DNA from: Bacteroidota bacterium
GTDB taxonomy: Bacteria; Bacteroidota; Bacteroidia; Chitinophagales; Saprospiraceae
Direction: 5' to 3'
Length of the DNA stretch: 54,858 bases
NCBI GenBank assembly: GCA_024277695.1
Contig: JAJRUR010000076.1
Location: forward strand, 1 to 54,858
The notes beneath the pieces were generated by a model that did not search any database, was not told the DNA's origin, and was given only the letters and a program-made list of their open reading frames with translations. This document shows, piece after piece, positions 5,786 through 43,768 of this stretch (position 1 is its first letter; each line of letters opens with the position of its first letter). The translations under genes and the position numbers were made by a program.

Positions 5786-5794
5786 TGTATCCAT

Positions 5795-8233: not shown

Positions 8234-8271
8234 TTTTTTTTGCTAGATAATTCATATTTATTCTAATCATA

Positions 8272-8307
8272 CAGACTGCTCCGAATCGGAGCAGTCTGTT
8301 TTTTTTT
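8272..8307 (+). terminator. Rho-independent terminator after the FadL-like gene
   Basis: Perfect hairpin CAGACTGCTCC-GAAT-CGGAGCAGTCTG followed by a run of 9 T. Confidence 0.85.
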
Positions 8308-8444
8308 GTATCTCGCTATATAATGGATACCATATAACAAAATAATCAACAGAATTCGGCTTTGTAGAACTTTGTAAACTCTATAATACGTTATAAGATT
8401 ATATTCAACACGCAAACTTCTGCGGATATAACCAAAAACCAAAA

Positions 8445-9305: not shown

Positions 9306-9332
9306 AAAGCTATTGCAAAAACTGCTCTCGAT

Positions 9333-11336: not shown

Positions 11337-11492
11337 ATTTTATAGTTAGGCATTGAGATGCGAATGTAATACATATCGACCAAAAAGTATAGTTTTTTAC
11401 CCTGTCTGTACGGCAGAGAGCTTCGATATTCCATTCTTGTCTGATGTATGTGTTCTATCACTGCGAGAGAACATATCGACATGGCCTTGATC

Positions 11493-12314
11493 CTATTGCT
11501 GTCGAATCAATTCCAATAGTCGATCGGGATAATCTGATGCGATTCCATCCACTCCCAAATCGATCAGACGTTGCATATCTTCAATTTTATTGACTGTCCA
11601 GGTGACTACTTGGATGTCTCGTGCTTTGGTATAAGCAATCAAAGACGGTTCTACTAGTTGATGGTACGGACTATAAATATCAGGGAGAAAACCCAAACGC
11701 TCTACGTTGGTGAGGTGTCCCGCCAAATTTTCTACCAAAAGGACGATGGTATAGCCGGGGTATTGCTTGCGCAAATATTGAAGCGTGGCTATATCAAAAC
11801 ACTGTAGACTCACTTGCTCTCTCAATCCAAACTTTTCGATTTGTGCTACTACCAAATCTACAAATGTTGCGCGATCAGGATGGAATATACCTATGTGATG
11901 CTCAACGACTTTCATCTCAATATTATAATGGATAGGAGGCGAATTATTTATATGCAGCCACCCCTCGACAGCAGCAAATGTCTCTTCAAGGCTCGGCTTG
12001 TGGCTCGCAATACAAGCTTGGTCGGGAAAAGCCGCATAGTATTTTGAACCGCAGTCGTATTGCCTGATCTGCTCATAATCCATCGCATATAGGTTGTGCA
12101 TTTTTTCGTCCACCTGCCTGATGGATTTGCCGCAAGGCAAAGTGCAAAACTGATAAGACATCCACGGTTCATGTGAGACGATTACTTGATGATCTTTACT
12201 GATCACGACATCCATTTCCAAGGTATGGACTCCCAGATCAAGGGCTTTTATAAATGCGGGGATAGTATTTTCGGGCATCAAGCCACGACAACCGCGATGT
12301 CCTTGTACGTCCAT
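11493..12314 (-). CDS. Glycerophosphodiester phosphodiesterase family protein
   Basis: The N-terminal GHRG...PENT...A...G...LE.DV motif is typical of GDPD. The start is 14 nt downstream of the adhesin stop, suggesting one operon. Confidence 0.85.
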   Translation of the reverse strand: MDVQGHRGCRGLMPENTIPAFIKALDLGVHTLEMDVVISKDHQVIVSHEPWMSYQFCTLPCGKSIRQVDEKMHNLYAMDYEQIRQYDCGSKYYAAFPDQACIASHKPSLEETFAAVEGWLHINNSPPIHYNIEMKVVEHHIGIFHPDRATFVDLVVAQIEKFGLREQVSLQCFDIATLQYLRKQYPGYTIVLLVENLAGHLTNVERLGFLPDIYSPYHQLVEPSLIAYTKARDIQVVTWTVNKIEDMQRLIDLGVDGIASDYPDRLLELIRQQ

Positions 12315-12328
12315 AATCGGATCAATAG

Positions 12329-15300
12329 TTAACGGATCAAATGTATTTCGCCTCGAAATTTTTCTATAGTTCCATTGGGGCGAGTGAGTTCTACCAAGTA
12401 GATATAAAGTTCTGTAGGAAGGTCATTTCCTTGTCGGTCTCGACCGTCCCAAGCTGCATCCGCTGCAGTACTGTTAAATACTTGCTGCCCCCACCGATTA
12501 TAGATACTCATATAATTGATGCGTAGAGACTCGGCGAGTGCGGGCTTGAATACGTCGTTTCGCCCATCACCATTTGGAGTAAAGGTATTGGGAAATTTGA
12601 TTTCATCGATAGCTTTGACGAGCAGTTGGATGCGTTTCGAAATAGTACACCCCGAAATTTGATCCGTGACGATGAGCTCTACGGTATAGTTAAAGTCTTC
12701 TGCAATGATATCCAAGGATTCGCCGGTTTGATCACTAAGCACACCATTGACATACCATTGATAATCTATGGCGTTAGCAGCTTCAGCCGTAGCGCGCAGG
12801 CTGATGGTTTGTCCTATAAAGATATCGTCAGTATTCAGCAAGATGATAGAGGCATCCACCTCGGGATAGACGATCACTTCCTGGAGCCCTACGAGTTCGC
12901 ACAAGCCGCTAAAGTCTCTGATCACATATGTTTTTGAAGCAGTAGCTTTAAAAAAAGGATTGAGACAGTTTAGACAACTTAACTCTGGCTCATCATCCCA
13001 AATTCCTTGGACAAAACGGGTGTTATCTACATCTAACTGCACAGTGGAGTCCCGGCAGGAATATAGAGTGGGGAAGATAAGGGTATCCTTGGGAGAAATA
13101 TTGACATCGACCTGTACACTGTAAGTACACTGATCCCGTTGGTAGCTCAATGTATAGATTTGGCTGTGGGTAGGACGCATCAGTGGATCTGGACAATTTG
13201 TACAGGAAAGGCCTGTACCGGGCGACCAATCAATCCGCGAAATATCTGTATCAAAGATTTGGAACCGTACGGACTGACCGGCACATATTGTAGTATCGCG
13301 AAAACCGGTGCTTATACCTTTAGGTGTGGTTAAGAGTACAAAGGTATCGACTTGTGTACAGGCTCCATTTACCGTTTGTCGCGTATAGATGCTCGAATGT
13401 TGTACCTCAAAGCGAGCAGATGGTAAAGATGGGTTACTCACCAAATTATCATCATTCGGCGACCAATTGAAACGTAAATTGGGATATTGGGGAGGAGAAA
13501 TAAACTCAGGAATCAGTTCGACTTGATCTCCTATACAAAATACTTCTTTTTGAGGTATGATACTATAACCCAAAGCAGGCAAACTATCCACATCTATTTC
13601 AATCTTTTTTTCTACAATACAAGCTCCTAAGTCTGCATAGATGCTAAACTCCGTATAGGATAACGGATATAATAGAGCAGTACTGTCTTCAATGCTTCCG
13701 AATTGCGGTGGAGAAAGGCTATAAAACACCGGCTGATGTATGGTACTTAGACGGAGTTGTACTGTGTCATCTTGGCAAATATGCACTGCATCGTTCGTTT
13801 CAATCTCAAAATACGGATCAATCACAGAGATATCAATATTTTGTGTAAAAGAACAGGCTTCAAAATCGATGGTCAATATCAAAACATCAGAATGCAGAGG
13901 AAGCACAGCATATATACTGTCGTTGAGCCGCCGAATGATCGACGGGTTAGACCAAAGCAACTGTCCTCTTATCGTATCATAGCTTACTTTGATCAAAAGA
14001 CTGTCTCCCAAGCATATATTACTGTTGTCGAGTTGCTCAAAGTTAACTGCATTATCGATGACAAATACATCTACCGAGCCGCTTCGCGTGCATAGCCCAT
14101 AGTCTATTTGGTATTGGATAGACTTCGTAGTTTGTGGATGCAATAGATAGGTAGAATCGTCTATCTGAGTTACATCTTCGGCAGGAAGCCAAGTAATCTC
14201 AGCCCGGGGGTCATTGAGCTTGAGCTGAAGGGTTACAGAAGATCCGGTACAAATCGTATCCCAACTGAGCAAACGGAGATCTATACTTGTGTCAATTACA
14301 GTAATGACTTGTTGTAGTTCACTCGTACAATCCCCGGCCGATACCTGTATGGTATAGTTTGTAGTGCTCGTCGGTCTAAAGAATAAGCTGTCGTTGCGAT
14401 AAACAATATCGGTATTAGGTGAGATAGAGATTAGGGCACCGGTATCATTGGCTATGAGGGTAGCAAGGACTTGTTCTCCGGGGCAGATGGTATCCTTATC
14501 GCTGATTTGGTATTGAAATGATGAATTCCTGACTGTAATGCTCGTTCTGCTCGTGTCGGCACATCGATGAAGTGCTCCCGTGGCGATTCGGGTATATGTC
14601 CTTGTCACTATTGGGAAGGCTAGGGGAGCTGCTATGGTCGAATCACTAAGACCGATACCCGGAGTCCAACTGTAGGATATGGTGCTATCAGATCCTACTG
14701 CTGCCAAAACTATGGTATCGCCCAAGCAAATAGTACTATCTGCAATGATTTGCGAAGGACTGATTTGTTCTATGCCGGCAAAGATGGTATCTCGGTAGCT
14801 GCAACTATCCAAAAAAGAACTTATAATAATAGGAGCAGTTTGTTCAGGAACTAACACAAAATGCAAAGAATCTCGAGATAGAAGGATAGAATCCGGAGCG
14901 ATATGGATAGAGTCTGCTTCTTGGGACATCACCAAATCAAAGATCAATGCATCACCCCGACATAGGGTGTCATCCGATCTTATAAAGATCTCAAAACTTG
15001 GGTCAAAAGTTCTTATAAAAACCGAATCCATATCTTGACAAGATACCCCTGTACCTAGCAGATACACAAATCCTGCATAACTCGTATCTATAACTACAGT
15101 ATCCATATCCAGATCTGCAAAGAGTCCTGGGGCAGTCCAGATGTAATTGGCTGCTCCAACTCCCGTAAGAAGAACACCCTTGCCGGGAATACAGTAGTCT
15201 GACTGATCGAGTTGTCGGATTCTGACATCGAGCGTATCGATAAGGCCTATCTCTAACAGGTCACAACGCATGTCCGGTGTCCCGATCCGAAAGAGTTCGA

Positions 15301-15649
15301 TGATGATACTTTCGTAGGTTTCAGATAATGTATCCGGCACTGCCTCTATATTATAGACTTTGGTCTGCTCTCCCGGTAAGAAGATGACAGTGTCCGGCAG
15401 ATTACTTATGTAGTCGATCGTATCAAGTGCTGTTCCGGATTTGTGTATCCTAAAATGTAGCGTATCCACGGCAACGGAGTCCAAACCTATCCGAATGGAA
15501 GAGACCGCAGTATTGCAGGATTCTACAAGTCTATCCGGCAGATTGTCAGAGCTAAAGGATAGGGATGCTCCGGGACTCATCGAATAGATGAGCTCAAATC
15601 CAAAGCCCATCATCAGCAAGGGTATAGCTATTATGATTGATATTCTCAT
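12329..15649 (-). CDS. Large secreted adhesin-like protein with a T9SS type B (gliding-motility-associated, CHU_C) C-terminal sorting domain
   Basis: I chose the start at internal M18 (MRISIIIAIPLLMMGF, a signal peptide), which avoids overlap with the cytochrome c gene. There is an N-terminal Calx-beta-like segment and then many Cys-containing beta domains of about 80 aa. The C-terminus FPNTFTPNGDGRNDVF...IYNRWGQQVF...WDGR matches the type B CTD. Confidence 0.8.
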   Translation of the reverse strand: MRISIIIAIPLLMMGFGFELIYSMSPGASLSFSSDNLPDRLVESCNTAVSSIRIGLDSVAVDTLHFRIHKSGTALDTIDYISNLPDTVIFLPGEQTKVYNIEAVPDTLSETYESIIIELFRIGTPDMRCDLLEIGLIDTLDVRIRQLDQSDYCIPGKGVLLTGVGAANYIWTAPGLFADLDMDTVVIDTSYAGFVYLLGTGVSCQDMDSVFIRTFDPSFEIFIRSDDTLCRGDALIFDLVMSQEADSIHIAPDSILLSRDSLHFVLVPEQTAPIIISSFLDSCSYRDTIFAGIEQISPSQIIADSTICLGDTIVLAAVGSDSTISYSWTPGIGLSDSTIAAPLAFPIVTRTYTRIATGALHRCADTSRTSITVRNSSFQYQISDKDTICPGEQVLATLIANDTGALISISPNTDIVYRNDSLFFRPTSTTNYTIQVSAGDCTSELQQVITVIDTSIDLRLLSWDTICTGSSVTLQLKLNDPRAEITWLPAEDVTQIDDSTYLLHPQTTKSIQYQIDYGLCTRSGSVDVFVIDNAVNFEQLDNSNICLGDSLLIKVSYDTIRGQLLWSNPSIIRRLNDSIYAVLPLHSDVLILTIDFEACSFTQNIDISVIDPYFEIETNDAVHICQDDTVQLRLSTIHQPVFYSLSPPQFGSIEDSTALLYPLSYTEFSIYADLGACIVEKKIEIDVDSLPALGYSIIPQKEVFCIGDQVELIPEFISPPQYPNLRFNWSPNDDNLVSNPSLPSARFEVQHSSIYTRQTVNGACTQVDTFVLLTTPKGISTGFRDTTICAGQSVRFQIFDTDISRIDWSPGTGLSCTNCPDPLMRPTHSQIYTLSYQRDQCTYSVQVDVNISPKDTLIFPTLYSCRDSTVQLDVDNTRFVQGIWDDEPELSCLNCLNPFFKATASKTYVIRDFSGLCELVGLQEVIVYPEVDASIILLNTDDIFIGQTISLRATAEAANAIDYQWYVNGVLSDQTGESLDIIAEDFNYTVELIVTDQISGCTISKRIQLLVKAIDEIKFPNTFTPNGDGRNDVFKPALAESLRINYMSIYNRWGQQVFNSTAADAAWDGRDRQGNDLPTELYIYLVELTRPNGTIEKFRGEIHLIR

Positions 15650-15666
15650 CTTGGGTCTAAAAGTAA

Positions 15667-16083
15667 CTATCTTTTGGAATTTGTACAGTTTCGCTGCCAC
15701 TTTTCAATCGTGTCTTTGGGGATATAGTTCTTTTTCTGTAAAAATTTTTTGGAGAGAAAATTGATCAGATTGGTCATTTCCTCAGGACTTATGTCCGGTA
15801 TCGGAGGCATGGGTTCAGAATATAGCTGACCATCGACAAGTATAGAATCATGCAAACCAAATAGTATGATGCACGGTAAGTCTTCAAAATGGGTAGCTAA
15901 ATAGTCGCTCCCTGCTAATGGAGGGATAAGCTTGCCCAAGCCGGTACCATCTTCCAGATGACATTGGGCACACTTGTTTTTATATATTTGCTCTCCGGAC
16001 GAATATGATTCAGTACACCCGGATAACCAATATGTTAACAATACTATGCTAATGATATTCTTTAAGTAATACATCGATATCAT
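15667..16083 (-). CDS. Class I c-type cytochrome lipoprotein
   Basis: Lipobox LSGC, a single CAQCH heme-binding motif, and a distal Met region (EPMPP). Confidence 0.75.
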   Translation of the reverse strand: MISMYYLKNIISIVLLTYWLSGCTESYSSGEQIYKNKCAQCHLEDGTGLGKLIPPLAGSDYLATHFEDLPCIILFGLHDSILVDGQLYSEPMPPIPDISPEEMTNLINFLSKKFLQKKNYIPKDTIEKWQRNCTNSKR

Positions 16084-18348: not shown

Positions 18349-20712
18349 TTGAAACTACAACATATTCTATTCCTCCTATTTTGTCTTTCAGGCAGAGCTT
18401 ATACGCAGTCAGATTATTCCAAAGTTAAAATCAATCTTATTGGTAAGGATATCAGTACATTGGCCAAAGCCGGAATCGAAGTGGATCATGGTTATTTTGC
18501 TCCCGGCAAATGCCTCATCAATGATTTTTCGAAAGAGGAGATAGCCAAGATTAGGTCTTTGGGTTATGAAATGGAGGTGCTTATAGACGATGTAGTAAGT
18601 TATTACAGCGATCCCAATAGAGCTAATCAGCAATTGGCATTGAGTTCAGGAGTAGCCTTATGTGATCAGAATGAACTCGAACTGTATCAAACACCATTAA
18701 ACTATCATTATGGATCGATGGGTGGATATTTGACTTGGGATGAGCTTTTGGTCGAATTGGATAGTATGGCTATGCTATATCCCGATTTGGTCACGGTGAA
18801 GACACCTATCGGTATTCAGTCGCTAGAAGGTAGAGAAATATATTGGTTGCGTATATCGGATAATGCTACTGTAGATGAAGACGAACCCGAAGTGCTTTAT
18901 ACCGCGCTTCACCATGCTCGGGAGCCCAATAGTCTATCACAGATGATATTCTATATGTGGTATCTTTTGGAAAATTATGCTGAAGATCCGGAGATCAAAC
19001 AATTAGTGGATGCAACGGAAATGTACTTTATCCCATGTATCAACCCCGATGGATATGTTTTTAATCAGAAAAATCAACCGGATGGCGGAGGGCTCTGGCG
19101 CAAGAATAAGCGGTTGATTGGGCCTCAACTGTTCGGTGTCGATCTAAATCGTAATTACGGCTATCTGTGGGGATTGGATGACGAGGGCTCCAGTGCGCAT
19201 CCGGGCGATCAGACTTATCGTGGTGTATCGGAATTCAGTGAGCCGGAGACGCAAGCGGTAAAGGAGTTTTGCGAAGCGCATGCATTTAAAATAGCTCTCA
19301 ACTATCACACTTACGGCAATCTGCTTATCCACCCTTGGGGCTACAACGATCAGCCTACGGAGGATAATGAAATTTTTAAAACGATCGGGCGAGAAATGAC
19401 CAAAGAAAACGATTACTTACTGGGTACAGGTAAGGAGACTGTGGGATATATCGTCAATGGAGATAGTGATGATTGGATGTATGGTGAAGAACTGTCCAAG
19501 TCAAAAATATTTTCTATGACTCCGGAAGTTGGAAATGCACAAGATGGATTTTGGCCTGCTCGGGATCGAATAGACATATTGAACAAAAGTGCGCTGCATC
19601 AAAATCTTGTAGCTGCACAAGCTCTGCATCCTTGGCTGACAATAGAAGAAAAAATAAAAAGCGAATTTATTTTTGATCGCGATGGTACTATTGTATGGGA
19701 TCTCAGCAATTTCGGACTAGAAGATGGTGATTTTACTGTTAAGTTCTATACCGAACCATCCAATGTCTTGCTACTGGTCAAAGAAGAGAGCTTTCGGCTC
19801 AATTCTATGCAGCAACGAGAGATTTCTATGCCTTTTTATATAGACGACCCAATCGTCTCCGGAAGTGAAGTGGATTTTATAGTAGAGGTAAATTCAGGAG
19901 AGTTTAGCTATAGATCTAGATTTAGAAAGACTTTGGCACTCGGTGAGCGCGTAGAAGTGTTAAATGATCGTATCAAAAACTTGGATAACTTTTTGGTCAC
20001 TACTTCGTGGGGCATATCAGACCAGATATACTTGTCGCTGCCCGGATCACTCGCAGATAGCCCGGAAGGTGATTATGCACCAAATGCTCGTGCTATAGTG
20101 ACGCTCAATACTCCAATTGATCTGTCGGATGCTATCCAGGCCCATGTCCGATTCGATGCCTTGTGGCAGATTGAAAAGGATTATGATTATGCACAAATAC
20201 TGGCATCATCCGATGGACTTAATTTTAGTCCGCTTTGCGGCTTTTTTACTAAGCCGGGGAGTGCTGATCAAGCTTTGGACGAACCACTTTACGATGGAGT
20301 GTCATTAGGTTGGGTTCAAGAAAGTATGAGTTTGGAAGATTACTTAGGCGAAAAAGAGGTCTTTTTGCGATTTGTATTTATGTCAGATCAGGCAGTAGAG
20401 CTTCGAGGAATTTATATCGACAATTTGCTCATTGAGAAAATCACCGGAAGAGTAACAGCTACAGAGGATGTCAACTCTTTATCAGGACTTCGGATATCAC
20501 CAAATCCGGTAGATAATCAATTGCTGATAGAGACAGAGAATACAGCTGTAGAATGTGTGTTGTATGATCTTACCGGCAAGCCACTCATCCGCCAGAGTAT
20601 CGCCAAAGACCAAACCCTCATAGAGACCGGTATGCTGAGTTCGGGAGTTTATATGCTACGTATTTATCTCAAAAACGGAGGAATTGTAACCAAAAAACTC
20701 ATCAAAATATAG
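18349..20712 (+). CDS. M14 family zinc carboxypeptidase with a T9SS type A C-terminal sorting domain
   Basis: TTG start with a good signal peptide. Carries the HxxE zinc motif (LHHAREPNS), NRNY and YH.YG motifs. The C-terminal 80 aa (ISPNPVDNQLLIE...GVYMLRIYLKNGGIVTKKLIKI) matches the Por secretion tail. Confidence 0.85.
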   Translation: MKLQHILFLLFCLSGRAYTQSDYSKVKINLIGKDISTLAKAGIEVDHGYFAPGKCLINDFSKEEIAKIRSLGYEMEVLIDDVVSYYSDPNRANQQLALSSGVALCDQNELELYQTPLNYHYGSMGGYLTWDELLVELDSMAMLYPDLVTVKTPIGIQSLEGREIYWLRISDNATVDEDEPEVLYTALHHAREPNSLSQMIFYMWYLLENYAEDPEIKQLVDATEMYFIPCINPDGYVFNQKNQPDGGGLWRKNKRLIGPQLFGVDLNRNYGYLWGLDDEGSSAHPGDQTYRGVSEFSEPETQAVKEFCEAHAFKIALNYHTYGNLLIHPWGYNDQPTEDNEIFKTIGREMTKENDYLLGTGKETVGYIVNGDSDDWMYGEELSKSKIFSMTPEVGNAQDGFWPARDRIDILNKSALHQNLVAAQALHPWLTIEEKIKSEFIFDRDGTIVWDLSNFGLEDGDFTVKFYTEPSNVLLLVKEESFRLNSMQQREISMPFYIDDPIVSGSEVDFIVEVNSGEFSYRSRFRKTLALGERVEVLNDRIKNLDNFLVTTSWGISDQIYLSLPGSLADSPEGDYAPNARAIVTLNTPIDLSDAIQAHVRFDALWQIEKDYDYAQILASSDGLNFSPLCGFFTKPGSADQALDEPLYDGVSLGWVQESMSLEDYLGEKEVFLRFVFMSDQAVELRGIYIDNLLIEKITGRVTATEDVNSLSGLRISPNPVDNQLLIETENTAVECVLYDLTGKPLIRQSIAKDQTLIETGMLSSGVYMLRIYLKNGGIVTKKLIKI

Positions 20713-24934: not shown

Positions 24935-25328
24935 TCTCTTTTACTCTTAATTTTCTATCCAGATCTCTTGCAGGAGCTTAAAATGTCCTGTGAGAATTCG
25001 TCTTCCGACGTATAGATATTCTGCTATCCAAGAGCATAGCTTCAGCAGTCCGGAAAATACCTGAAGAATGTTCATTTTATTAGGATGCAATATAGAGCCG
25101 CCTAATGCAGAATAAATGGATGTTAAATAGTGCCCGGAAAAAGATAAAAATTATTATATATCTAGTTATCAATAATGTATGTATTAAGAAAAAACATAAA
25201 CCTTCTGATATTTTAAATATTTTAAAATACCCCCCCTTCCCGGCCAAAACCTAATGCGCAACACGCATTTTTGCAAAAACCATAGACTTTTTCTTTACCA
25301 ATTAATACCCCAAAAACTGAGTCGTTTA

Positions 25329-25533
25329 CCCTCACGACGAGGCAGATAACCCAAGCGACTGCGCACCCCTCTTTTTTTAAGAGAGCGGGGATGCGTAGTA
25401 CTGTTGTCCTCCCCAAACCCCCTCCAAAGGGGGACAAGGTCACTACTCGCTTATGCGCTGGACAGCTTATGCGCTTGTGATCCACGATTTAGACATCTCG
25501 GATTATCCGAGGAGGCACGACGAAGCAGTCGCA
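25329..25533 (+). repeat. Copy A of a GC-rich, hairpin-rich intergenic module (core about 205 nt)
   Basis: Aligns base-for-base with 28766-29006 apart from a few indels or substitutions and one 30-nt unit. It stands out as GC-rich within AT-rich intergenic DNA. Confidence 0.9.
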
Positions 25534-25763
25534 ATCCTACGGACACGTTTCTAACCGCAAAGGACGCAAGTGGGGGAGTGGTTTACCGTCACTACGAGGA
25601 GGAAGAATGACCTAACTAGTTTTTTTAAAAAATAACAGCACTTTTGCTAACTTAAACGTTATTTAAAAAAAATTACTATATTCGTAATTGTAAATTCATT
25701 TCGTGTTTATTATTCTGATAATAAAACGAAGTGCTTATTCTTTCACCTAAATATTTTATCATT

Positions 25764-25823
25764 ATGTTTTATCAAAAAATTTTATCCCCCCCCCCCCCTG
25801 TTAATCAAATTATTATTTTGTAA
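25764..25823 (+). other. Short upstream reading frame holding the ATG and first part of a signal peptide, cut off from the 25831 ORF by a C13 tract
   Basis: ATG at 25764 reads MFYQKILSPPPPVNQIIIL then a stop at 25821. With 12 or 15 C it would read straight into the downstream ORF. Confidence 0.6.
25786..25798 (+). repeat. Homopolymeric C13 tract (candidate slipped-strand phase-variation switch)
   Basis: Counted directly: positions 25786-25798 are all C. Confidence 0.95.
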
Positions 25824-25830
25824 CATCTTC

Positions 25831-27288
25831 TTGATGCTTAGCTTTTATTCTCATTCTCAAATTTCAAATATGAGAGGAGTACACGGCTTTGTCTTTGATG
25901 ACTGCACCGCCAACCCTATAGAAGGAATTAAGGTATGTGCCTTTAATCATTCGACCAATAGAAATGATTGTACGGTCACCGATAGCGATGGAAAGTATCA
26001 TATACCTATATACACATCAGGTATTTGGATAACTGTAACGACAAATAATCAGTCTGAAAATATTTTTAATTATCCCGGATTCGCCTTCGTTAATTTTGAT
26101 ATTGTTTCTCCTGTGGACTATATGAGAGTCGTGAATTGTGCAACCGGTGAGAGCAAGTTAATATATAGCACAGACTTTAGTACGCGACCGACTATAATTT
26201 CTTGTGAAAAATGGGATTTGAAATTTGATACAGATTATAATCAATATGGTCCTTATGATTATTTTTATACAGTTAGAAGTTTTTTCCCTTGGGGAGGAAA
26301 CACCGTTCTTCGACAATGGTCAATAGGATGTGATAATCCAAATAATCCACCGGAATCAATAAATTGTGCCGGAATCGATTTGACCGAGAAACTCCGAGGG
26401 CTACCCAATGCAGTCTATCAAATTACTCTCGTAAAAGCTTGTTGCGACCGAGGAGATGGTGACTTCCCACGCCAGATTACTTCAGGCCTCGTCACGTGGC
26501 AAAACTCCGAAAGTCCTGTTGTTGATTTTAAATTTCTTGCATCTTTTGAGATCGAAGATCTCAATGGAGAAAATGATAACAATGGAATGATCGACTTTAT
26601 CTCGGACTCAAGACCCGGTCCGTTACTCGGTGATATAAGTAGTGGATTTAACGGTTCTTTTACCACAGGTAATAATATAAGTAATTATAATGTAAAAATA
26701 GAAGGAGTGAATTGTGAGGGGCAAATTGTACTTGAGACAGTTTATAACGAAAATTTCCAACCGGATGCCACGGGAAAACTGCCGGACAATTTTCTCTTTG
26801 CCGCCAATGTAAAAGATGCAAATGGGACACCATTGTTTTTGTCCAAACGTGGGGAATGTTTCAAATTTACTCTATCTGCAACCAATGCATGTGGAACGGA
26901 TTCTAAATCGAGTTATTTTAAGATTACGGAGAGTTGTATGTACTGTATGGATGCCCCTGACAAAAACCCTATAGCGCAGCAAGTACATAAGATTTTTTCA
27001 GAATCAAATAATACTGATATAGAGTCTGCGCAGGGTATATCGCTTGAGTTCCCGACTATAAATGATCGGCAAGAGGTTCCGACGAGTATATACCCCAACC
27101 CCGCAGATGATCAGCTCTACATCCGCTCATCGGTACTCCAATCTTGGGATATCTATAATAGCAGTGGTCAGCATATCCTACAAGGCACAGATAGAAATAT
27201 ACATGTCAACTCCTTACAAAAAGGTCTCTATCTGATCGATATAAAAACTGTACAGGGCAGTAAAATATTAAAATTTGTAAAACAATAA
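25831..27288 (+). CDS. Secreted protein with a CarboxypepD_reg-like N-terminal domain and a T9SS type A C-terminal sorting domain. As sequenced, the frame lacks its own ATG and signal peptide.
   Basis: The C-terminus IYPNPADDQLYIRSS...GLYLIDIKTVQGSKILKFVKQ is a type A CTD. The listed start (TTG/ATG at 25831/25834) begins with LSFYSHSQ, which looks like the end of a signal peptide rather than a start. Confidence 0.75.
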   Translation: MMLSFYSHSQISNMRGVHGFVFDDCTANPIEGIKVCAFNHSTNRNDCTVTDSDGKYHIPIYTSGIWITVTTNNQSENIFNYPGFAFVNFDIVSPVDYMRVVNCATGESKLIYSTDFSTRPTIISCEKWDLKFDTDYNQYGPYDYFYTVRSFFPWGGNTVLRQWSIGCDNPNNPPESINCAGIDLTEKLRGLPNAVYQITLVKACCDRGDGDFPRQITSGLVTWQNSESPVVDFKFLASFEIEDLNGENDNNGMIDFISDSRPGPLLGDISSGFNGSFTTGNNISNYNVKIEGVNCEGQIVLETVYNENFQPDATGKLPDNFLFAANVKDANGTPLFLSKRGECFKFTLSATNACGTDSKSSYFKITESCMYCMDAPDKNPIAQQVHKIFSESNNTDIESAQGISLEFPTINDRQEVPTSIYPNPADDQLYIRSSVLQSWDIYNSSGQHILQGTDRNIHVNSLQKGLYLIDIKTVQGSKILKFVKQ

Positions 27289-27298
27289 CTTATGTTAG

Positions 27299-27338
27299 AG
27301 AGATGGGCATAGCTAGATGCTCATCTCTGTTTTTTTTT
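27299..27338 (+). terminator. Rho-independent terminator
   Basis: A 12-bp stem (AGAGATGGGCAT / ATGCTCATCTCT with one G-U pair), a 6-nt loop, then G and a run of 9 T. Confidence 0.85.
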
Positions 27339-27363
27339 AATATCATTTAAAATTATTTAAGGT

Positions 27364-28737
27364 ATGCGCTTACTCTGCTTCATGATATGGATAAGCACTG
27401 TTGGCATGAGCTATACTTTTGGACAGAATCTCGTGCTGAATCCAAGCTTAGAAGAGTATATTTCCTGCCCTAAGGAGGATGGTGATTTTGATGGCTTAGT
27501 TAAGGATTGGCGTAGTTATGAACTTCCAGTAACATATTTGCAATGTGATTATCGTCCTGATTGGTCATTAAGGGTTGACCCTTACGACGGTGAGGCCATG
27601 TGCGCAATGAGATATTTTGACCCCGCAGGAGTTGGTGACCCGAGAAGAGGTTATGTTCATGGTACACTGAGCTCAAAGCTCCTTCGAGGTAAGAGGTACT
27701 ATATAGAATATTTTTTACACCTTCTTTTTGGCATAAATTTGCATGATCAATTTTCTGTCTATTTTACTCAAGATCCTCTGGATCAGATAATCAAAAATGA
27801 CGACATCCCCCCATATTTTGTACTTTCGGCACAGATCAACAACCAAAAAGGTATCCTTAAAGATACGATTAATTGGATCCCAATGACCGGATGTTTTGTC
27901 GCTGATGGAGGAGAGCAGTATTTTTCCATGGGCAATTTTTTGCACGACTCGATGGTTAATTTTATAAATTTCGTTCACCATTCCGGTAGTATGGAGTTTA
28001 TAGATTATGTCCGATTATTTGAGGTGGATGACCTTGTCTATACAGACACCATTTTATGTCAGAATACCGGGTTTGTACCCAATACATATGATTTGAAAGG
28101 ACTCAAAACCATGCTCGACGGTGTGGAGATCAATCGTTTTGTAGCAGATCAAGAAGGCATCTACGAGATAGAGTATGTGCTGGATGGTTGCGGGGTCATT
28201 GGTCGTAGTATGGTCGAAGTGATTCCTTGTAGAGAATGTGCACAAAACATCACCCCCTCTTATTCAATCTGCATAGACTCCATATTGTCCTTGGAAGATC
28301 TTATGGCGGATAATCTCATCCATACTGACCCGACGACGGGAGAAATAGTTACCGAATTCTCCAGAGGGCAAGTGGGCACTTATCAGCTCGATATATTTTC
28401 TGTTGATTGTTCTGTAGTAGGCACCGCTGACATAGAAGTAGTAGATTGTTCTGCCTGTAAACTCTATTTGCCAAATGTTTTTACTCCAAACGATGATGGA
28501 ATAAATGATTTTTTTAGAGCTTTTGCTGCTTGTGATGTAGTAAGCTTTGAAATGAGTATATTCAATCGTTGGGGAGATATGGTGTTCCATTCTTCCGATA
28601 TGAATCTAGGGTGGAATGGATATCACAATAACACTCCGGCGGACAATGGCGTATATGTCTATATGATTCGATATAAGCAAAATGGATACCCTTTTAAATC
28701 TATAAAAGGAGATGTCACTTTATTGTCTTGGAGGTAG
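27364..28737 (+). CDS. Secreted protein with a T9SS type B (CHU_C) C-terminal sorting domain
   Basis: 457 aa with a signal peptide. The C-terminus LYLPNVFTPNDDGINDFF...SIFNRWGDMVFHS...GWNG...GVYVYMIRY matches the type B CTD. Confidence 0.8.
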   Translation: MRLLCFMIWISTVGMSYTFGQNLVLNPSLEEYISCPKEDGDFDGLVKDWRSYELPVTYLQCDYRPDWSLRVDPYDGEAMCAMRYFDPAGVGDPRRGYVHGTLSSKLLRGKRYYIEYFLHLLFGINLHDQFSVYFTQDPLDQIIKNDDIPPYFVLSAQINNQKGILKDTINWIPMTGCFVADGGEQYFSMGNFLHDSMVNFINFVHHSGSMEFIDYVRLFEVDDLVYTDTILCQNTGFVPNTYDLKGLKTMLDGVEINRFVADQEGIYEIEYVLDGCGVIGRSMVEVIPCRECAQNITPSYSICIDSILSLEDLMADNLIHTDPTTGEIVTEFSRGQVGTYQLDIFSVDCSVVGTADIEVVDCSACKLYLPNVFTPNDDGINDFFRAFAACDVVSFEMSIFNRWGDMVFHSSDMNLGWNGYHNNTPADNGVYVYMIRYKQNGYPFKSIKGDVTLLSWR

Positions 28738-28765
28738 ATGTCTTGTAGAATTCGATTTGAACGGC

Positions 28766-29006
28766 CCCTCACGACGCGAGGCAGAAAAACCAAGCGACTG
28801 CGCACCCCTCTTTTTTTAAGAGAGGGGTCGGGGGGCGTAGTACTGTTGTTCTCCCCCTAACCCCCTCCAAAGGGGTTGTCCTCCCCCTAACCCCCTCCAA
28901 AGGGGGACAAGGTCACTACTCGCTTATGCGCTGGACAGCTTATGCGCTTGTGATCCTCGATTTAGACATCTCGGATTATCCGAGGAGGCACGACGAAGCA
29001 GTCGCA
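28766..29006 (+). repeat. Copy B of the GC-rich structured intergenic module (241 nt)
   Basis: Same orientation as copy A and near-identical, but with an extra 30-nt unit. Confidence 0.9.
28846..28905 (+). repeat. Tandem duplication (2 x 30 nt) inside copy B
   Basis: TTGTTCTCCCCCTAACCCCCTCCAAAGGGG followed directly by TTGTCCTCCCCCTAACCCCCTCCAAAGGGG, with 1 mismatch. Copy A has a single unit. Confidence 0.95.
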
Positions 29007-29232
29007 CCACTCGATGGCAGCATAAAAAATGGTTCGTAATTAGAAATCAGTGGTTCATGCTTGTATTATATTTTAGAGAAATAGTCTGACTAGTAGCTGT
29101 TTTTTAAAATAATTCTGTTATCTTGCTCATCAATCATGGTAGGAAATGTAAGAGCAACATGACTTTAGGCAACGTTTTTGCTATAAAAGTAGTATTATAT
29201 TAATTACAAACACTCAAGAAACAAAAGATTAG

Positions 29233-32200
29233 ATGCTGCGAAATGTACTTCTTCTATTATTGGCATTTTGTACCATAAAGCAACTAAGAGCTCAGTGCGA
29301 TGTGCCGATCGTAGATGCAGGACCTGATTTGACTGTCTGCTTTAATACGGGAGGCACTGAGGTTACCCTTGAGGGTACTGTAGAAGGTCTTTTCACAAAC
29401 CCTATATGGACACCTAATATCAACATAGTTGATCGCTTTACGCTCACACCTACTGTAAGAGTCAACGGTCCTGCTACATACACACTTACCGTCACCGCAC
29501 TCAATACACTGAACCTCATTGAAAACGGTGACTTCGAAGATGGAGTAACTTTTTCTACGCAATATACAGAAAACGATACTTTGGTAGAGCCGGGCACCTT
29601 TGATCTGGTGCGTGATGCATCAAGACGTAATATCCCCGGAAATTTTTGTAGAATGGGTGATCTCTGCCCCGAACCCAATCAAGGCAGATTCCTCGCTGTC
29701 AATGGAAGTACAGTCCCACGTACTATACTTTGGTGTCAAGAAATCGACATCAAACCGATGACAGACTATGTGATCAAAATGTGTCTGATGAACATAGACG
29801 CAGAACCACCTGAGCCCAATATGCCCAGCTTGGCGGAACTCCAAGTAGTTTTTGACCAAGACCAAAATGGCGCTCCGCCTTTTGTTTTTGGTCCATCCTT
29901 CCAAGTCCCGCCCGATCCTTGTGACTGGCAGTGTTTTGAAAGAACCTTTTTCTCCAGAGACCTGACCGGGCTCGTTGCTATGTGCATCGGAGATGCCAAT
30001 GTCGATCAAGACGGAAATGATTTTGGCATCGATTGTATAGAAATGTACGAAATATGTGATGAATATACAGATGATATATTTATAGATGTAGATCCGCTGC
30101 CGGTCGTACCCTTTGATACGATTAAATGTGCAGGAGAACGAATAAATATCGGTGGTAGATTCTTTGATGATCCGGGCACTTTTGACGTATTGCTCCACGA
30201 AAATGATGATGAATGTGATACACTATTGGACATTACGATTGAAGACTTTACTTCTATGGTGGAGTACATACACGGCCCACTTGAATTGACTTGTGATGAC
30301 ACCATCGTACTATTAGGTGCTTTCTTCAGTAGCAATCTCGAGATAAATCCCGATCTGATTTCATATCACTGGACGACCTCCAATGGCAATATATTGAGCA
30401 ATCCGGATACAAGCTTTATAACTGTCAATAAAGCAGGTACTTATCGCGTAAGGGTAGATCTTAACGACCCGAGCATAGTTTGTGATGTGGATACCGCCGG
30501 GACAATCACTGTCGTGGACAAAACCAAAATACCCAAGGCTATGGCCGGACCGGACATGTTTATGGGTTGCCTCGATACGACCATTATGCTCAATGGTATT
30601 GGGTCTGATGTAGGTGACTCTATAGCTATCAAGTGGTTGACTACCAATGGCACGATCGTCAAAGATACTTTTACACTCACTCCGACAGTATCTGATTCGG
30701 GTATCTATGTCCTCGAAATACTTAATAAAGAAACCGGATGTATCGCCTATGACACTGTACAGGTCGTCATGGACAGAACACCTCCTATGATCGTAGCACC
30801 GGACTCGTTGGCATACGATTGTGCATCCACCTCACTTCTTTTAGATGCTACAGGATCCTCTAGTGGAGGACGATTCGAAATTCTATGGACAACTTCCGGT
30901 GGTAATATAGTAAGTAGAAATGACAGTTTGATCGTTTTGGTTGATGGACCGGGCATATACCACTTGCTCATCACCGATACGCTCAATCAATGTATCGCTG
31001 AAAAAGACATCAAAGTCTTTGGTAATGATCAATCACCTTCTGTAGATGTAGGTCCGGATCGTACCATCACTTGCGACTCTTCGGAATTTGACTTGATCGC
31101 TGTATTTGGAAATGTAGGCCCGAATTTTACGATCAACTGGACTACCATCGGAGGAAATATTATCGGTGCTACAGATCAAACTATGATTAGAGCAGATGCA
31201 GCAGGCATATACATCTTTACTGTCATCGACCAAGAAACTACTTGTATCGGTACGGATACTCTCAGAATCGGGGTCGATCAGAATATCCCTACCGCAGTTG
31301 CCGGAAGTGATAAAATCCTCGACTGTGACTCTTCTTCTGTAACGCTCAATGCTTCGGGAAGCTCAAGCGGACCTAATATTAGATACCAATGGACCACCCT
31401 TACGGGAAATATCATCAGCGGGGCTACTACTCGTATGCCGGTGGTCAATAGTTCGGGAGTCTATGTGATCGAAGTTATCAATATATCCAATGGATGTACA
31501 GCAAAAGATAGCGTCCGAGTAAGTACGGATGTCGGTTTCCCAAATATCAATATTCAACTTCCGGATACCATCAATTGCCTCCAAAATCAAATCATAATCG
31601 ATGCATCCCAATCAAGTAGCGGTGGTAATTTTGTACCAATGTGGACAACGGCAGACGGCACCATCGTTTCCGGAGCCAATAGCCTTACCCCTACAGTCAA
31701 TCGCGGTGGAACCTATGTGCTCACTATTGTAAATAGTGCCAATAATTGTGATAATTCGGGCACAGTTACTGTGTTTGAGTTTACCGATCAGCCGATTGCT
31801 GATGCAGGCCAAGATGCACGCATCACTTGCATAGATGACGTGCTGACACTTGACGGTTCCGGATCTACTTCGGGCAGTGAGATTATCGTAATCTGGACTA
31901 CTTCAGATGGCAATATCGTCAGCGGTGCCAATACCCCTCAACCGGTTGTCGATCGTAGCGGCAGCTATACTATACGGATCATCAATAGATTGAGCCATTG
32001 TGAGGCTACGGATATGGTTCAGGTCACTTTAGACCAAAATCCACCTAGGGCTGATGCAGGTCAATCACAGGAGATCGACTGTCAAAACCAAGATGTTACT
32101 CTGGATGGAAGTGGATCGGACTCAGGTCCCAACATCAGTTATCAATGGACGACCACAGGTGGTAATATCATCTCGGGTGCATCAAGCGCCATTGCCAGGG

Positions 32201-34068
32201 CCAATGCCACAGGATGGTACTATATCACAGTCACTAATACTATCAATGGCTGTCAGGCAATCGATAGTGTCCAGGTAACTCGAAGCGCAGATCTCCCAAC
32301 GGCAAATGCCGGGACTGATCGCGAGTTGACTTGTTTGATTAGCCAAGTACAGTTGGACGGCTCCGGCTCAGACAGCGGTCCCAATATTTCTTACCAATGG
32401 ACCACTACAGATGGTAACATCGTCTCCGGGGCTACCTCTACTACTCCTATAGTAGATCGCCCGGGTACTTATGTCATCGAAGTAACGAACTCCCTCAACA
32501 ACTGCTCAGCGGTAAGCAGCGTGCGAGTGACTGCCAATTTAGAAACACCTAATGTGCAGATCCAAACACCGGAACTCCTCTCCTGTACCAATACCTCGGT
32601 TACTTTGGATGGCTCAGCGTCGGATAGCGGACCCGGAATTACTTACGAATGGAAAACCACGAATGGAAATATCTTGTCCGGTAGATTTAGCAATCAAGCT
32701 AGGGTAGATCAGGTGGGTACCTATTTGCTAGTAGTCACAAGAGCAGATAATGGATGCAAAGACTCTTTGAGTATTTCGGTGATGCAAGATCAAAGTATCC
32801 CTCGAGTGATAATCAACCCACCGGATTCGATTACTTGTAATAATGATATGGTGACCATAGATGCTTCCGGAAGCAGTACCGGTGATGTCAACTACTTATG
32901 GACAACGACAGATGGACAGATTTTGACTGATCCTACTCAATGGATTATCACCGTAGGGCGAGTTGGAACCTATAGGCTTACTATCACGGATAATGCTACA
33001 GGATGTCCCAATGATGCGCAAGTAACTGTGGGTGCCAATACTCAACTACCTATCGTCCATGCAGGTGCTGATTTTAGCATCTTCTGTGGTCAGACAGATA
33101 TTCAACTGCTCGGTCAGATCATTAGTGCTACCGGCCCTATAGCTGCTGAATGGACTACTACAGATGGCGAAATTATCGGTAATCCATTTAGCCTCGGGAT
33201 ACAAATCGGGATGGAAGGGACATATACTTTAAATGTCCAAGACCAAAACAATGGCTGTACCTCTAGTGATCAGATTACTGTAACCCTTATTGACGAGCTT
33301 TTTGTAGAGTTAGATATCACGCAACCGGACTGTGGTATGGATCTTCCATTTATTGATATTGCTGAGGGCTTGGGTACGCCCCCATATCGCTATTCGCTCA
33401 ATGAGGGAGCTAGTTTCAAAAATTTTCCAATTACAAACTTTGAGCCAGAGACGACATACTATTTATTGATTGAAGACGATTTAGGTTGTACTACTCATGA
33501 CACTGTTGTGATCGGAGGTATAGGATCGATCAGTGTCCAAATAGAAAAACCTCCGCTGATCAACCGCGGCGAATCTGTCCAGTTGCATCCTATCTTATCT
33601 CGTCCTTTTGGAGATCTGGACACTATTATTTGGTCACCTCCGGACTTCCTAAATCACACCAATATACTTAACCCTACAGCTACTCCGGATGACGAAATTA
33701 TCTATACTATTTATGTCGAAACTTATGACCATTGCTGGGATACTTCTTCGGTGCGCGTATTCGTAAAAACACCCTTAGACTTCTATATCCCAAACATCTT
33801 TTCTCCCAATCGGGACAACATCAATGACTGGTGGACGATATATGGCAATGAACGTGTAGATCGCATACTCGACCTGAGGATTTTTGATCGATGGGGAGAA
33901 ATGCTCTTCCAACGCTTTGACTTTGCACACAGTGATGAGCGACTTGGTTGGAATGGTCGGTTCAATGGACAGCTCGTACCGGTTGGAGTTTATGTCTATA
34001 CCGCGCATGTCCGACTGACTGATGGGGAGGTGATACCTGTCACCGGGGATGTGACCGTAATTAGATAA
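29233..34068 (+). CDS. Giant (1611 aa) adhesin-like protein with 12 tandem 84-aa PKD/Ig-like repeats and a T9SS type B C-terminal sorting domain
   Basis: Signal peptide MLRNVLLLLLAFCTIKQLRAQ. The repeat consensus is C...V.LDGSGS..GPNI.Y.WTT..GNI.SGA....P.V...G.Y...V.N..N.C. The C-terminus is FYIPNIFSPNRDNINDWW...RIFDRWGEMLF...GWNGRFNG...GVYVYTAHV. Confidence 0.85.
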   Translation: MLRNVLLLLLAFCTIKQLRAQCDVPIVDAGPDLTVCFNTGGTEVTLEGTVEGLFTNPIWTPNINIVDRFTLTPTVRVNGPATYTLTVTALNTLNLIENGDFEDGVTFSTQYTENDTLVEPGTFDLVRDASRRNIPGNFCRMGDLCPEPNQGRFLAVNGSTVPRTILWCQEIDIKPMTDYVIKMCLMNIDAEPPEPNMPSLAELQVVFDQDQNGAPPFVFGPSFQVPPDPCDWQCFERTFFSRDLTGLVAMCIGDANVDQDGNDFGIDCIEMYEICDEYTDDIFIDVDPLPVVPFDTIKCAGERINIGGRFFDDPGTFDVLLHENDDECDTLLDITIEDFTSMVEYIHGPLELTCDDTIVLLGAFFSSNLEINPDLISYHWTTSNGNILSNPDTSFITVNKAGTYRVRVDLNDPSIVCDVDTAGTITVVDKTKIPKAMAGPDMFMGCLDTTIMLNGIGSDVGDSIAIKWLTTNGTIVKDTFTLTPTVSDSGIYVLEILNKETGCIAYDTVQVVMDRTPPMIVAPDSLAYDCASTSLLLDATGSSSGGRFEILWTTSGGNIVSRNDSLIVLVDGPGIYHLLITDTLNQCIAEKDIKVFGNDQSPSVDVGPDRTITCDSSEFDLIAVFGNVGPNFTINWTTIGGNIIGATDQTMIRADAAGIYIFTVIDQETTCIGTDTLRIGVDQNIPTAVAGSDKILDCDSSSVTLNASGSSSGPNIRYQWTTLTGNIISGATTRMPVVNSSGVYVIEVINISNGCTAKDSVRVSTDVGFPNINIQLPDTINCLQNQIIIDASQSSSGGNFVPMWTTADGTIVSGANSLTPTVNRGGTYVLTIVNSANNCDNSGTVTVFEFTDQPIADAGQDARITCIDDVLTLDGSGSTSGSEIIVIWTTSDGNIVSGANTPQPVVDRSGSYTIRIINRLSHCEATDMVQVTLDQNPPRADAGQSQEIDCQNQDVTLDGSGSDSGPNISYQWTTTGGNIISGASSAIARANATGWYYITVTNTINGCQAIDSVQVTRSADLPTANAGTDRELTCLISQVQLDGSGSDSGPNISYQWTTTDGNIVSGATSTTPIVDRPGTYVIEVTNSLNNCSAVSSVRVTANLETPNVQIQTPELLSCTNTSVTLDGSASDSGPGITYEWKTTNGNILSGRFSNQARVDQVGTYLLVVTRADNGCKDSLSISVMQDQSIPRVIINPPDSITCNNDMVTIDASGSSTGDVNYLWTTTDGQILTDPTQWIITVGRVGTYRLTITDNATGCPNDAQVTVGANTQLPIVHAGADFSIFCGQTDIQLLGQIISATGPIAAEWTTTDGEIIGNPFSLGIQIGMEGTYTLNVQDQNNGCTSSDQITVTLIDELFVELDITQPDCGMDLPFIDIAEGLGTPPYRYSLNEGASFKNFPITNFEPETTYYLLIEDDLGCTTHDTVVIGGIGSISVQIEKPPLINRGESVQLHPILSRPFGDLDTIIWSPPDFLNHTNILNPTATPDDEIIYTIYVETYDHCWDTSSVRVFVKTPLDFYIPNIFSPNRDNINDWWTIYGNERVDRILDLRIFDRWGEMLFQRFDFAHSDERLGWNGRFNGQLVPVGVYVYTAHVRLTDGEVIPVTGDVTVIR
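30289..33300 (+). repeat. Intragenic tandem array of about 12 x 252 nt (84-aa domain repeats)
   Basis: Consecutive repeats start exactly 252 nt apart where I checked (LDGSGS at 32101 and at 32353). The outer boundaries are approximate. Confidence 0.8.
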
Positions 34069-34213: not shown

Positions 34214-34575
34214 GGAATAAGACACTCTATCGCTGTAGTGAAGCTACAGAGGAAAGTCCGGACAAGGTAGAGCACTGTACCACTTAATGCGTGGGCTCCA
34301 ATAGAGTTTGGAGACAGTACTGTCACAGAAAATAACCGCTTTTCCTCAGGGAAGAGTAAGGGTGAAAACGTGTGGTAAGAGCGCACGAGATCGTTCAGTA
34401 ATGGTCGATCTGGACAGCTTGCAGCTTGCAATGCCAAGTATATCCCGATCGTTCGTAAGGACATCTGCTTGCTCGGCGGATATATCGGGAGGGGTAGGCA
34501 GCTCAGATAAATGATAGAGACTTCTTGTGGTCTTATGATCAGAGAAGTACAGAATCCGGCTTATCGTCTTATTCC
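34214..34575 (+). ncRNA. rnpB: RNase P RNA, bacterial type A
   Basis: P4 strands GAGGAAAGTCCGGAC and ACAGAATCCGGCTTATCG. P1 pairing GGAATAAGAC (34214-34223) with GTCTTATTCC (34566-34575). P2 CTCTATC/GATAGAG, P3 hairpin CTGTAG-TGAAG-CTACAG, and the conserved GGGTGAAAACGTGTGGTAAGAGCGCAC. Confidence 0.93.
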
Positions 34576-35295
34576 ATTTTTTTGTGCTATGATGACAGTC
34601 TCTTCGGATTTGAAACCATAGAGATTGTCCTTTTCTACTTCAAAGTTTTTGCTTTGGATATCGAAACCTACACTACGGAGGCGATGGACCAGTCCTGATA
34701 TGGAGTAGATTCTTACATGGTCTTTCTGCCCAAAGTGGATGAGCCGATCTTCAGGACGCGTTATTGCTGCATTTTCGTAGATGCTTCCGGACTTAAAGGG
34801 AGTTTGGATATAACATAGTCCACCGGGTTTTAAAATTCTCCATAATTCGCGCATGGCTGGTAGATCATCGGTGACATGTTCTAGTATATGATAGCAAATG
34901 ATGATATCAAAACTATTATCCTTTTCTTGGATAGATTCTATATTTAGTTGTTTATCTGCTTGAAATTCGTCGGAATAGTCCGAAGTGGTATAGTTAAGCC
35001 CTGGTATGGATAGTATTTTTGATCTAAGACATTTCGGTGGCGAAAAATGGAGAATTGTCTTATTTTGGATGTCATCCTGGATGATCGACCACAGTCGCCG
35101 TGTTCTACCCAAAGATCCGCACCGAGGACAAAGCTGATCACCATTTTTTAGGTTTACGAATCGCGACATAGAAAACAAACATATATTGCATTGAAATGTA
35201 TTGCCGTAGTAAGGTAATGCTACTATATATCTTAGGATGCTTTCATATCGTTTGAGCGCTGAAGAGGGTAGCAGACGTTTTACAAATTCATACAT
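34561..35295 (-). CDS. Class I SAM-dependent methyltransferase with an N-terminal Cys4 zinc-ribbon-like motif
   Basis: I moved the start to M20 (35295) to avoid overlap with the fumC 3' end. Carries CNIC...CPRC, and a methyltransferase core (ILHFSP..., DIIICYHILEHV, LKPGG). Confidence 0.7.
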   Translation of the reverse strand: MYEFVKRLLPSSALKRYESILRYIVALPYYGNTFQCNICLFSMSRFVNLKNGDQLCPRCGSLGRTRRLWSIIQDDIQNKTILHFSPPKCLRSKILSIPGLNYTTSDYSDEFQADKQLNIESIQEKDNSFDIIICYHILEHVTDDLPAMRELWRILKPGGLCYIQTPFKSGSIYENAAITRPEDRLIHFGQKDHVRIYSISGLVHRLRSVGFDIQSKNFEVEKDNLYGFKSEETVIIAQKNGIRR

Positions 35296-43740: not shown

Positions 43741-43768
43741 AGAGATATTGTAAGCAATCTACTTTTAG

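Follow-up and report, generated by a model that had tools for sequence, protein, structure and literature searches.

What kind of element can stand, almost unchanged, at nearly the same distance ahead of two different T9SS cargo genes, and is it best understood as a regulatory RNA, as a regulator-binding site or as a piece of copied DNA? This question is raised by a 54,858-nt stretch of a Bacteroidota contig (hereafter the window), in which an earlier note described a GC-rich, hairpin-dense module in two copies, termed here copy A and copy B (Table 1). The outline of that description was borne out: copy A matches copy B nearly throughout and on the same strand (blastn E=2e-70, copy A vs copy B), the boundaries and the spacings to the two ATGs are as claimed, and both copies share the + strand orientation of the genes that follow them. 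Both of these genes, moreover, encode T9SS cargo, with Por_Secre_tail (25831-27288) and CHU_C/PKD (29233-34068) domains found 3' of copies A and B, respectively; the two proteins thus differ in architecture. The module was searched for in either orientation with blastn and a two-copy nhmmer profile, and no third copy was found within the 54.9-kb window.

Table 1. Positions of the two module copies, their internal features and the neighbouring cargo genes in the window.
Feature	Position	Strand	Details
Module copy A	25329..25533	+	205 nt, 55% GC; 394 nt 3' of rsmE, 230 nt 5' of ATG 25764
Module copy B	28766..29006	+	241 nt, 57% GC; ends 226 nt 5' of ATG 29233
13-nt motif CACGACGAGGCAG	25333..25345	+	Near left edge; recurs as CACGACGAAGCAG at 25516-25528 near right edge
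5' arm of 8-bp long-range pairing, GCGACTGC	25355..25362	+	26 nt inside left edge: subterminal, not terminal
Long imperfect hairpin	25393..25450	+	Apical mini-hairpin CCCCCT-CCAA-AGGGGG; 18-nt arms, 72% complementary
Direct repeat GCTTATGCGCT-N5-GCTTATGCGCT	25449..25475	+	11-nt units starting at 25449 and 25465
Perfect 7-1-7 palindrome CTCGGATTATCCGAG	25497..25511	+	15 nt
3' arm of closing pairing, GCAGTCGC	25525..25532	+	1 nt from right edge
GC-rich tail	25534..25612	+	79 nt, 53% GC; copy A only, absent from copy B
30-nt tandem duplication	28845..28905	+	2 units, 96% identical; apex of long hairpin; copy B only
T9SS cargo gene, Por_Secre_tail	25764..27288	+	3' of copy A; own terminator at 27299-27328
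T9SS cargo gene, CHU_C	27364..28737	+	Second gene of bracketed pair
CHU_C/PKD cargo gene	29233..34068	+	1611 aa; 3' of copy B

Across 205 aligned nt, the two copies are 92-99% identical; they are set apart by 8 substitutions and by 36 gap columns, the latter falling into three indels (2+3+31 nt). The largest gap is due to the tandem duplication in copy B, which has two of the 30-nt units where copy A has one. Divergence is unevenly distributed, with 7 of 89 aligned positions changed in the left part and 1 of 116 in the right part (Fisher p=0.02), a pattern that would suit mosaic repeats or a gene-conversion tract. The GC content of the module (55-57%) exceeds that of both the surrounding intergenic DNA (20-34%) and the whole window (41.7%). 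No coding potential shared by both copies was detected, and since the indels shift the reading frame between copies, the module is not a protein-coding gene. An assembly artefact as the source of the two copies was ruled out, since they are not identical and are both spanned by the contig.

With regard to internal anatomy, the 11-nt direct repeat, the 8-bp pairing, the long imperfect hairpin and the perfect palindrome were all recovered where they had been described. The CCCCTCT/AGAGGGG hairpin was found in perfect form in copy B only, whereas copy A instead reads AGAGAGCGGGG. The direct repeat can also be read as a degenerate 8-nt periodic tract (GCTTATGC/GCTGGACA/GCTTATGC/GCTTGTGA), and this octamer-periodic GCTTATGC tract, together with the 30-nt duplication, points to slippage-prone DNA. 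Neither the palindrome nor the 11-nt repeat occurs anywhere else in the window. Because CACGACGAGGCAG recurs in the same sense as CACGACGAAGCAG, the subterminal repeats of the module are direct rather than inverted. The GC-rich tail of copy A holds a 24-nt direct repeat (25576-25599) that lies 43 nt beyond the right edge of the module and is identical at 21 of 24 positions to 25319-25342, a unit that straddles the left edge; this pair is present only at copy A, and may reflect either a longer ancestral unit or a partial second copy behind the first. The same tail contains, at 25596-25612, a Shine-Dalgarno-like GAGGAGG separated by 4 nt from a two-codon mini-ORF (ATG ACC TAA), and GAGGAGG is also present within the module at 25509-25515.

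The position of the module edges bears directly on whether only the module, or a longer upstream region, is shared. Homology 3' of the cores had been described as diverged but collinear, and this was not significant: when the 230-nt and 226-nt tails were compared by anchored and by semi-global/global alignment, they scored like dinucleotide shuffles (z=0.2-0.3), and identity on the main diagonals was 27-32%, against a background of 28.6+/-3.5%. The first 130 nt of the tails gave p~0.03 against shuffles, but among unrelated intergenic windows of this contig, 5% scored as well in the case of the copy A tail and 19% in that of the copy B tail. The upstream flanks of copies A and B likewise show no relatedness, that of copy B being the 3' end of a coding sequence, and the bases immediately 5' of the module differ as well (TTTA, also given as TTAC, at copy A vs CGGC at copy B). 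As the flanks are unalignable on both sides, the module has sharp edges. The proposal that two upstream regions are paralogous, with the core alone kept near-identical, is accordingly not supported, given that statistics show no relationship between the flanks on either side and that the orthologous 150-nt intergenic region of a relative, described below, does not contain the module.

The two copies lie in an ordinary chromosomal setting that includes genes for transketolase, sigma-70, GroEL, fumarase and SodA, as well as RNase P RNA and three tRNAs. A domain search of ORFs of at least 150 aa revealed no transposase, integrase, recombinase, reverse transcriptase or RAYT gene in the window, nor any TnpA, TnpB, IscB or IS110 gene. 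Copy B begins 28 nt past the stop codon of the CHU_C gene at 27364-28737, and no terminator was found between this stop codon (28737) and the start of copy B (28766). The module is absent upstream of three further T9SS cargo genes in the window (12329-15700, 18349-20712 and 27364-28737). The ATG at 25764, which had been taken as the start of the gene behind copy A, is correct in position and distance, but it is out of frame with the main ORF because a C13 tract (25786-25798) breaks the frame of the Por_Secre_tail gene. With 12 C instead of 13, an intact 507-aa preprotein with a hydrophobic, signal-peptide-like N-terminus would result; the tract is either a phase-variation switch of the slipped-strand type, seen in its OFF state, or an error of the assembly in a homopolymer.

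Comparison with relatives was used to place the two copies in an evolutionary context. RseP homologues place the source organism in the Saprospirales, among Saprospiraceae and Lewinellaceae at ~55% identity, and the lineage is an isolated one: GroEL, sigma-70 and transketolase are each singletons upon clustering at 90% identity, and exact look-ups of the window proteins returned none on record. The closest genome available, GCA_054018635.1 (Saprospirales; RseP 74% identical), has the order DUF4159-tRNA-HscB-RseP-RsmE-[150 nt]-CHU_C, in which the last gene encodes a 1614-aa protein that is the orthologue of the 1611-aa cargo protein (73% aa identity). At this rsmE-CHU_C site, GCA_054018635.1 has neither the module nor either of the two small cargo genes, and hence the two copies in the window bracket a lineage-specific two-gene segment. 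The site is variable in extent, spanning 4.3 kb here (24935-29232) vs 150 nt in the nearest relative (8987-9135 of its locus). In a second relative, the two small cargo genes are present as a pair (57-63% aa identity) in another context, where they are followed directly by a convergent flavin-reductase-like gene, without the module after the second gene. Judging from these gene orders, the bracketed pair has changed location during evolution, and the module is no conserved feature upstream of the 1611-aa gene. The hairpin terminator at 27299-27328 (AGAGATGGGCAT...ATGCTCATCTCT, then a T run) is conserved in recognisable form in the relative with 57-63% identity (~830-860 of its locus). In more distant relatives, different genes follow rsmE; one of them carries, beside the RseP locus and right after hscB (5710-14000 of its locus), a phage-type integrase, an unannotated gene block and an Abi_2 gene, which suggests an integrated element at that site.

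Searches for homologues of the module beyond the window were uniformly negative. At gathering score, Rfam 15 returned only RNase P and three tRNAs for the whole window, and the earlier note had not recognised the module as any named RNA family either; at E<=10, the interval 25200-25800 gave noise only, the best hit being Whalefall-1 with 19.4 bits vs a threshold of 37. Scanning of GTDB representative genomes with the exact 27-nt pattern GCTTATGCGCTN5GCTTATGCGCT yielded 7 matches and no true module copy. All 7 are (GCTTATGC)n octamer microsatellites in unrelated taxa, which the pattern, poorly chosen in this respect, also fits; if the source genome belongs to the scanned representative collection and is masked there over this window alone, the copy number of the module is low. 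Octamer arrays of the (GCTTATGC)n type (example locus among the scan matches: 5938-6250) were seen in widely differing bacteria, among them Burkholderia, Sphingomonas, Methylobacter, Elusimicrobia, Gemmatimonadota and a Lewinellaceae MAG. The last of these additionally has a long (GCTTACAC)n array. In the octamer arrays, the 8-nt periodicity is the same as in the GCTTATGCGCT repeat of the module. An exact scan of JGI metagenomes with ATCTCGGATTATCCGAGGAG produced one chance match in a GC-rich contig and no true copy, while scans of viral contigs with other 20-23-mers of the module and blastn against plasmids and phages gave no match. A six-frame pseudo-protein search of 5.8 billion proteins at E<=10 for spurious ORFs or protein remnants found nothing, an exhaustive search of 1.84 billion protein representatives gave repeat-protein noise only, and no copy was detected when the two-copy nhmmer profile was run across ~155 kb of related or fetched loci.

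The module was then compared with known classes of small non-coding elements. Classical MITEs such as Correia elements and Nezha resemble it as small, structured, intergenic elements that have no coding capacity and that a relative lacks at the orthologous site. The hallmarks of this class were looked for at both copies, and both proved absent. The left end (CCCTCACGACG...) does not match the reverse complement of the right end (TGCGACTGC...), the sole inverted repeat being the 8-bp pairing (25355/25525), whose left arm lies 26 nt inside the element; there is also no target-site duplication, copy A being flanked by GTCGTTTAC|...|ATCCTACGG and copy B by GAACGGC|...|CCACTCGAT. The module is, moreover, not AT-rich, unlike classical MITEs, and an assignment to that class was rejected for want of terminal inverted repeats and target-site duplications. 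An invertible promoter was likewise rejected, as there are no flanking inverted repeats, and so was a retron msr-msd or DGR template repeat, given that no reverse transcriptase domain is encoded in the window and that the differences between copies A and B are not adenine-specific.

A closer likeness is offered by BOX elements of Streptococcus pneumoniae, which are short non-coding intergenic units of 100-300 nt that fold tightly when transcribed (PMC3049150). BOX elements are modular, with a variable number of boxB units, lie near surface- or virulence-type genes and can alter the expression of co-transcribed genes (PMC3049150). Like BOX/ERIC/RUP-type repeats, the module is intergenic and non-coding and has extensive predicted secondary structure, and the 30-nt unit of copy B (28845-28905) is a variable internal sub-unit comparable to boxB. 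It has, however, no sequence similarity to BOX, and two copies are known vs >100 for BOX; it also differs from BOX/ERIC/RUP repeats in being GC-rich in a GC-poorer genome, in ending with direct rather than inverted 13-nt repeats and in having no known candidate for a mobilising IS. A second likeness is to putative mobile promoters, defined as highly similar non-coding sequences upstream of non-paralogous genes within one genome (Matus-Garcia, Nijveen and van Passel, 2012; PMC3575422). Their families are mostly pairs with ~92% identity, no Rfam match and no known mobility mechanism, and were sought in a window from -150 to -50 relative to the start codon (PMC3575422). The module shares the defining similarity (80% identity or more across 50 nt or more, ahead of genes that are not paralogues), but it falls outside that positional range, copy A spanning about -435 to -231 and copy B about -467 to -227, and no promoter motif was found in it.

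Taken together, these comparisons lead us to favour, with middling confidence, the reading that the module is a discrete, non-coding, GC-rich and hairpin-dense DNA repeat, confined to this Saprospirales lineage and recently copied as a unit, such that it brackets the T9SS cargo segment 25764-28737. Recent copying of a DNA unit is indicated by the sharp edges, the near-identity beside unalignable flanks, the absence of the module at orthologous sites, its foreign base composition and its variable internal sub-unit. Among the options that the earlier note had listed (leader RNA, sRNA, regulator-binding platform or MITE-like insertion), an inserted or copied DNA unit thus fits the sharp edges best, although the MITE hallmarks are absent; a T9SS leader is disfavoured. 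Recent copying of such a repeat would have left two direct copies between rsmE and the 1611-aa CHU_C gene, and the module would belong with small interspersed or "mobile upstream sequence" repeats of the BOX/ERIC or putative mobile promoter kind. Spread would have proceeded by recombination or through an unidentified trans-acting enzyme rather than by classical cut-and-paste transposition, and the similarity of copies A and B would stem from recent copying or gene conversion rather than from purifying selection on an RNA. Any present effects of the module would then be by-products. Because no terminator lies between the CHU_C gene and copy B, this copy is probably co-transcribed with that upstream gene, and if transcribed it would form a stable RNA with several hairpins (about -79 to -97 kcal/mol), by which the transcript could be attenuated or stabilised. 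As direct repeats of 205 nt, copies A and B could also serve as RecA substrates, leading to loss or amplification of the bracketed gene pair.

Several observations sit less comfortably with a recently copied repeat. The two known copies are only 3.4 kb apart, so that a dispersed family is assumed; for two copies linked in this way, an event of duplication or recombination confined to this locus is equally likely. Terminal inverted repeats and target-site duplications are absent, and the window encodes no transposase, integrase or RAYT protein. Both copies also have the same orientation and a spacing of 230/226 nt, which, if not coincidental, hints at a function or at a larger duplicated unit and leaves a low probability to the regulatory readings. 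Finally, the + strand folds better than shuffles, which is not clearly true of the - strand, even though the minimum free energies (MFEs) of the two strands are nearly equal. The predicted + strand MFE is -78.7 kcal/mol for copy A (z=-4.4) and -96.7 kcal/mol for copy B (z=-3.3), relative to shuffles, whereas the - strand of copy A reaches -78.1 kcal/mol with a z of only -1.9, because G-rich shuffles fold better.

This strand preference is one of the arguments for a cis-acting structured RNA, that is, a long 5' leader or intercistronic element that controls the T9SS adhesin-like genes behind it at the level of translation, stability or termination and is kept near-identical by selection, which we consider unlikely. 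Such a role would be consistent with the orientation of both copies like their downstream genes and their ends at 230 and 226 nt before the ATG, with the stable + strand fold (z=-4.4 for A and -3.3 for B), with four consensus G-U pairs that become A-C mismatches on the opposite strand, with the first-hairpin indel of copy A, which still allows pairing via the next G run, and with probable read-through into copy B from the upstream gene, no terminator lying between them. Among 58 predicted consensus pairs, however, 0 are compensatory and 1 shows a one-sided change, a count drawn from two near-identical copies, which carry no covariation information. There is also no Rfam family match, the 30-nt duplication of copy B changes the central hairpin, the - strand MFE is about equal (-78.1 vs -78.7 kcal/mol), and 99% identity over 116 nt beside unalignable flanks is the pattern of recent copying, not of long-term RNA constraint. 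In the nearest relative, only 150 nt precede the orthologue of the 1611-aa gene, and they do not include the module; as three cargo genes in the window and the orthologues in relatives do without the module, a conserved T9SS leader RNA is disfavoured. A regulator-binding platform acting at the DNA level, moved as a unit in the manner of a "mobile promoter" or upstream activating sequence, is decidedly unlikely as well. Here the palindrome and the two GCTTATGCGCT repeats would be operators through which one transcription factor governs both cargo genes. Both elements fall within the best-conserved right half of the module, highly similar upstream sequences before unrelated genes are a recognised phenomenon (PMC3575422), and the gene downstream of copy A looks phase-variable, as is typical of regulated surface proteins. 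On the other hand, ~230 nt separate the end of the module from the start codons, which places it far beyond the -150 to -50 window (PMC3575422), and the palindrome and repeat occur nowhere else in the window, while the GCTTATGC periodicity resembles slippage-prone simple sequence of many unrelated bacteria. The Bacteroidota-type promoter motif TAnnTTTG was not found around either copy, whether within or 3' of the module, nor is there a shared promoter-like sequence inside the module.

Two further readings would make the module part of a mobile system. An attC site consists of one imperfect hairpin of 57-141 nt whose ends carry the core sites R'' (RYYYAAC) and R' (GTTRRRY). As in integron attC/CALIN arrays, same-orientation structured repeats bound a gene set here and one of them lies just 3' of the last stop codon; the module nevertheless differs in having no R'/R'' sites, in being too long, in the lack of an IntI gene in the window and in bounding a single unit with two sites. 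An integron attC site proper was rejected: there is no GTTRRRY at the right end (GCAGTCGCA), the left candidate is unconserved (AGATAAC vs AGAAAAA), and the element has 205-241 nt and a branched fold. A broader version, likened to attC-bounded integron cassettes, pdif modules and MITE-bounded composite units, treats the module as a recombination site or homology handle of gene cassettes, a circle of module, 230 nt and two cargo genes having been integrated by module-by-module recombination, and we regard it as improbable. Direct copies bracket genes missing from the site in the nearest relative, the same gene pair occurs in another context in another relative and so has moved, copy B follows the last cassette gene's stop codon by 28 nt in an attC-like manner, and the 13-nt motif CACGACGARGCAG recurs near both edges. 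These points are set against the lack of GTTRRRY/RYYYAAC core sites, a length of 205-241 nt that exceeds the attC range, a multi-branched fold, the absence of an integrase or recombinase gene from the window and of a target-site duplication outside the copy pair, 394 + 226 nt of extra unique intergenic DNA here vs 150 nt in the relative, and the observation of a single "cassette". Extended to an undescribed Saprospirales cassette system, in which the module would be the recombination handle, a functional analogue of attC/pdif, for moving, amplifying or deleting T9SS cargo genes as module-bounded units, with the poly-C switch adding phase variation, the proposal becomes very improbable. Most doubtful of all is descent from one end of an IS lacking inverted repeats (IS200/IS605, IS110 or IS91 type), perhaps with an omega-RNA- or bridge-RNA-like scaffold, whose protein gene was lost. 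The module suits such a relic in being rich in hairpins, in lacking terminal inverted repeats and target-site duplications, in its preference for one strand and in the stem that closes it at the 3' edge, and TTAC, a known IS608-type target, precedes copy A; but CGGC precedes copy B, hence no target motif is shared, and there is no TnpA, TnpB, IscB or IS110 gene in the window, no HEARO or other Rfam match and no protein remnant in the six-frame search.

Should the recently copied repeat prove to be dispersed, Saprospirales would have their first described family of small interspersed repeats, and the repeat would mark recent rearrangement among T9SS cargo genes; should its copies turn out to be tied to cargo genes, it could show how secreted adhesin-like proteins are reshuffled or co-regulated in these bacteria. 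With two copies in a single genome, its general significance is at present limited. Two features of the surrounding DNA are recorded here in addition. At 34214-34579, directly 3' of the 1611-aa cargo gene, there is an RNase P RNA of bacterial class A (193 bits), which is overlapped by spurious ORFs of the mechanical ORF list. Further downstream (38188-46132), a gene for a bacterial alpha-2-macroglobulin of 1850 aa precedes one for a PBP1C-type penicillin-binding protein, a known paired arrangement.
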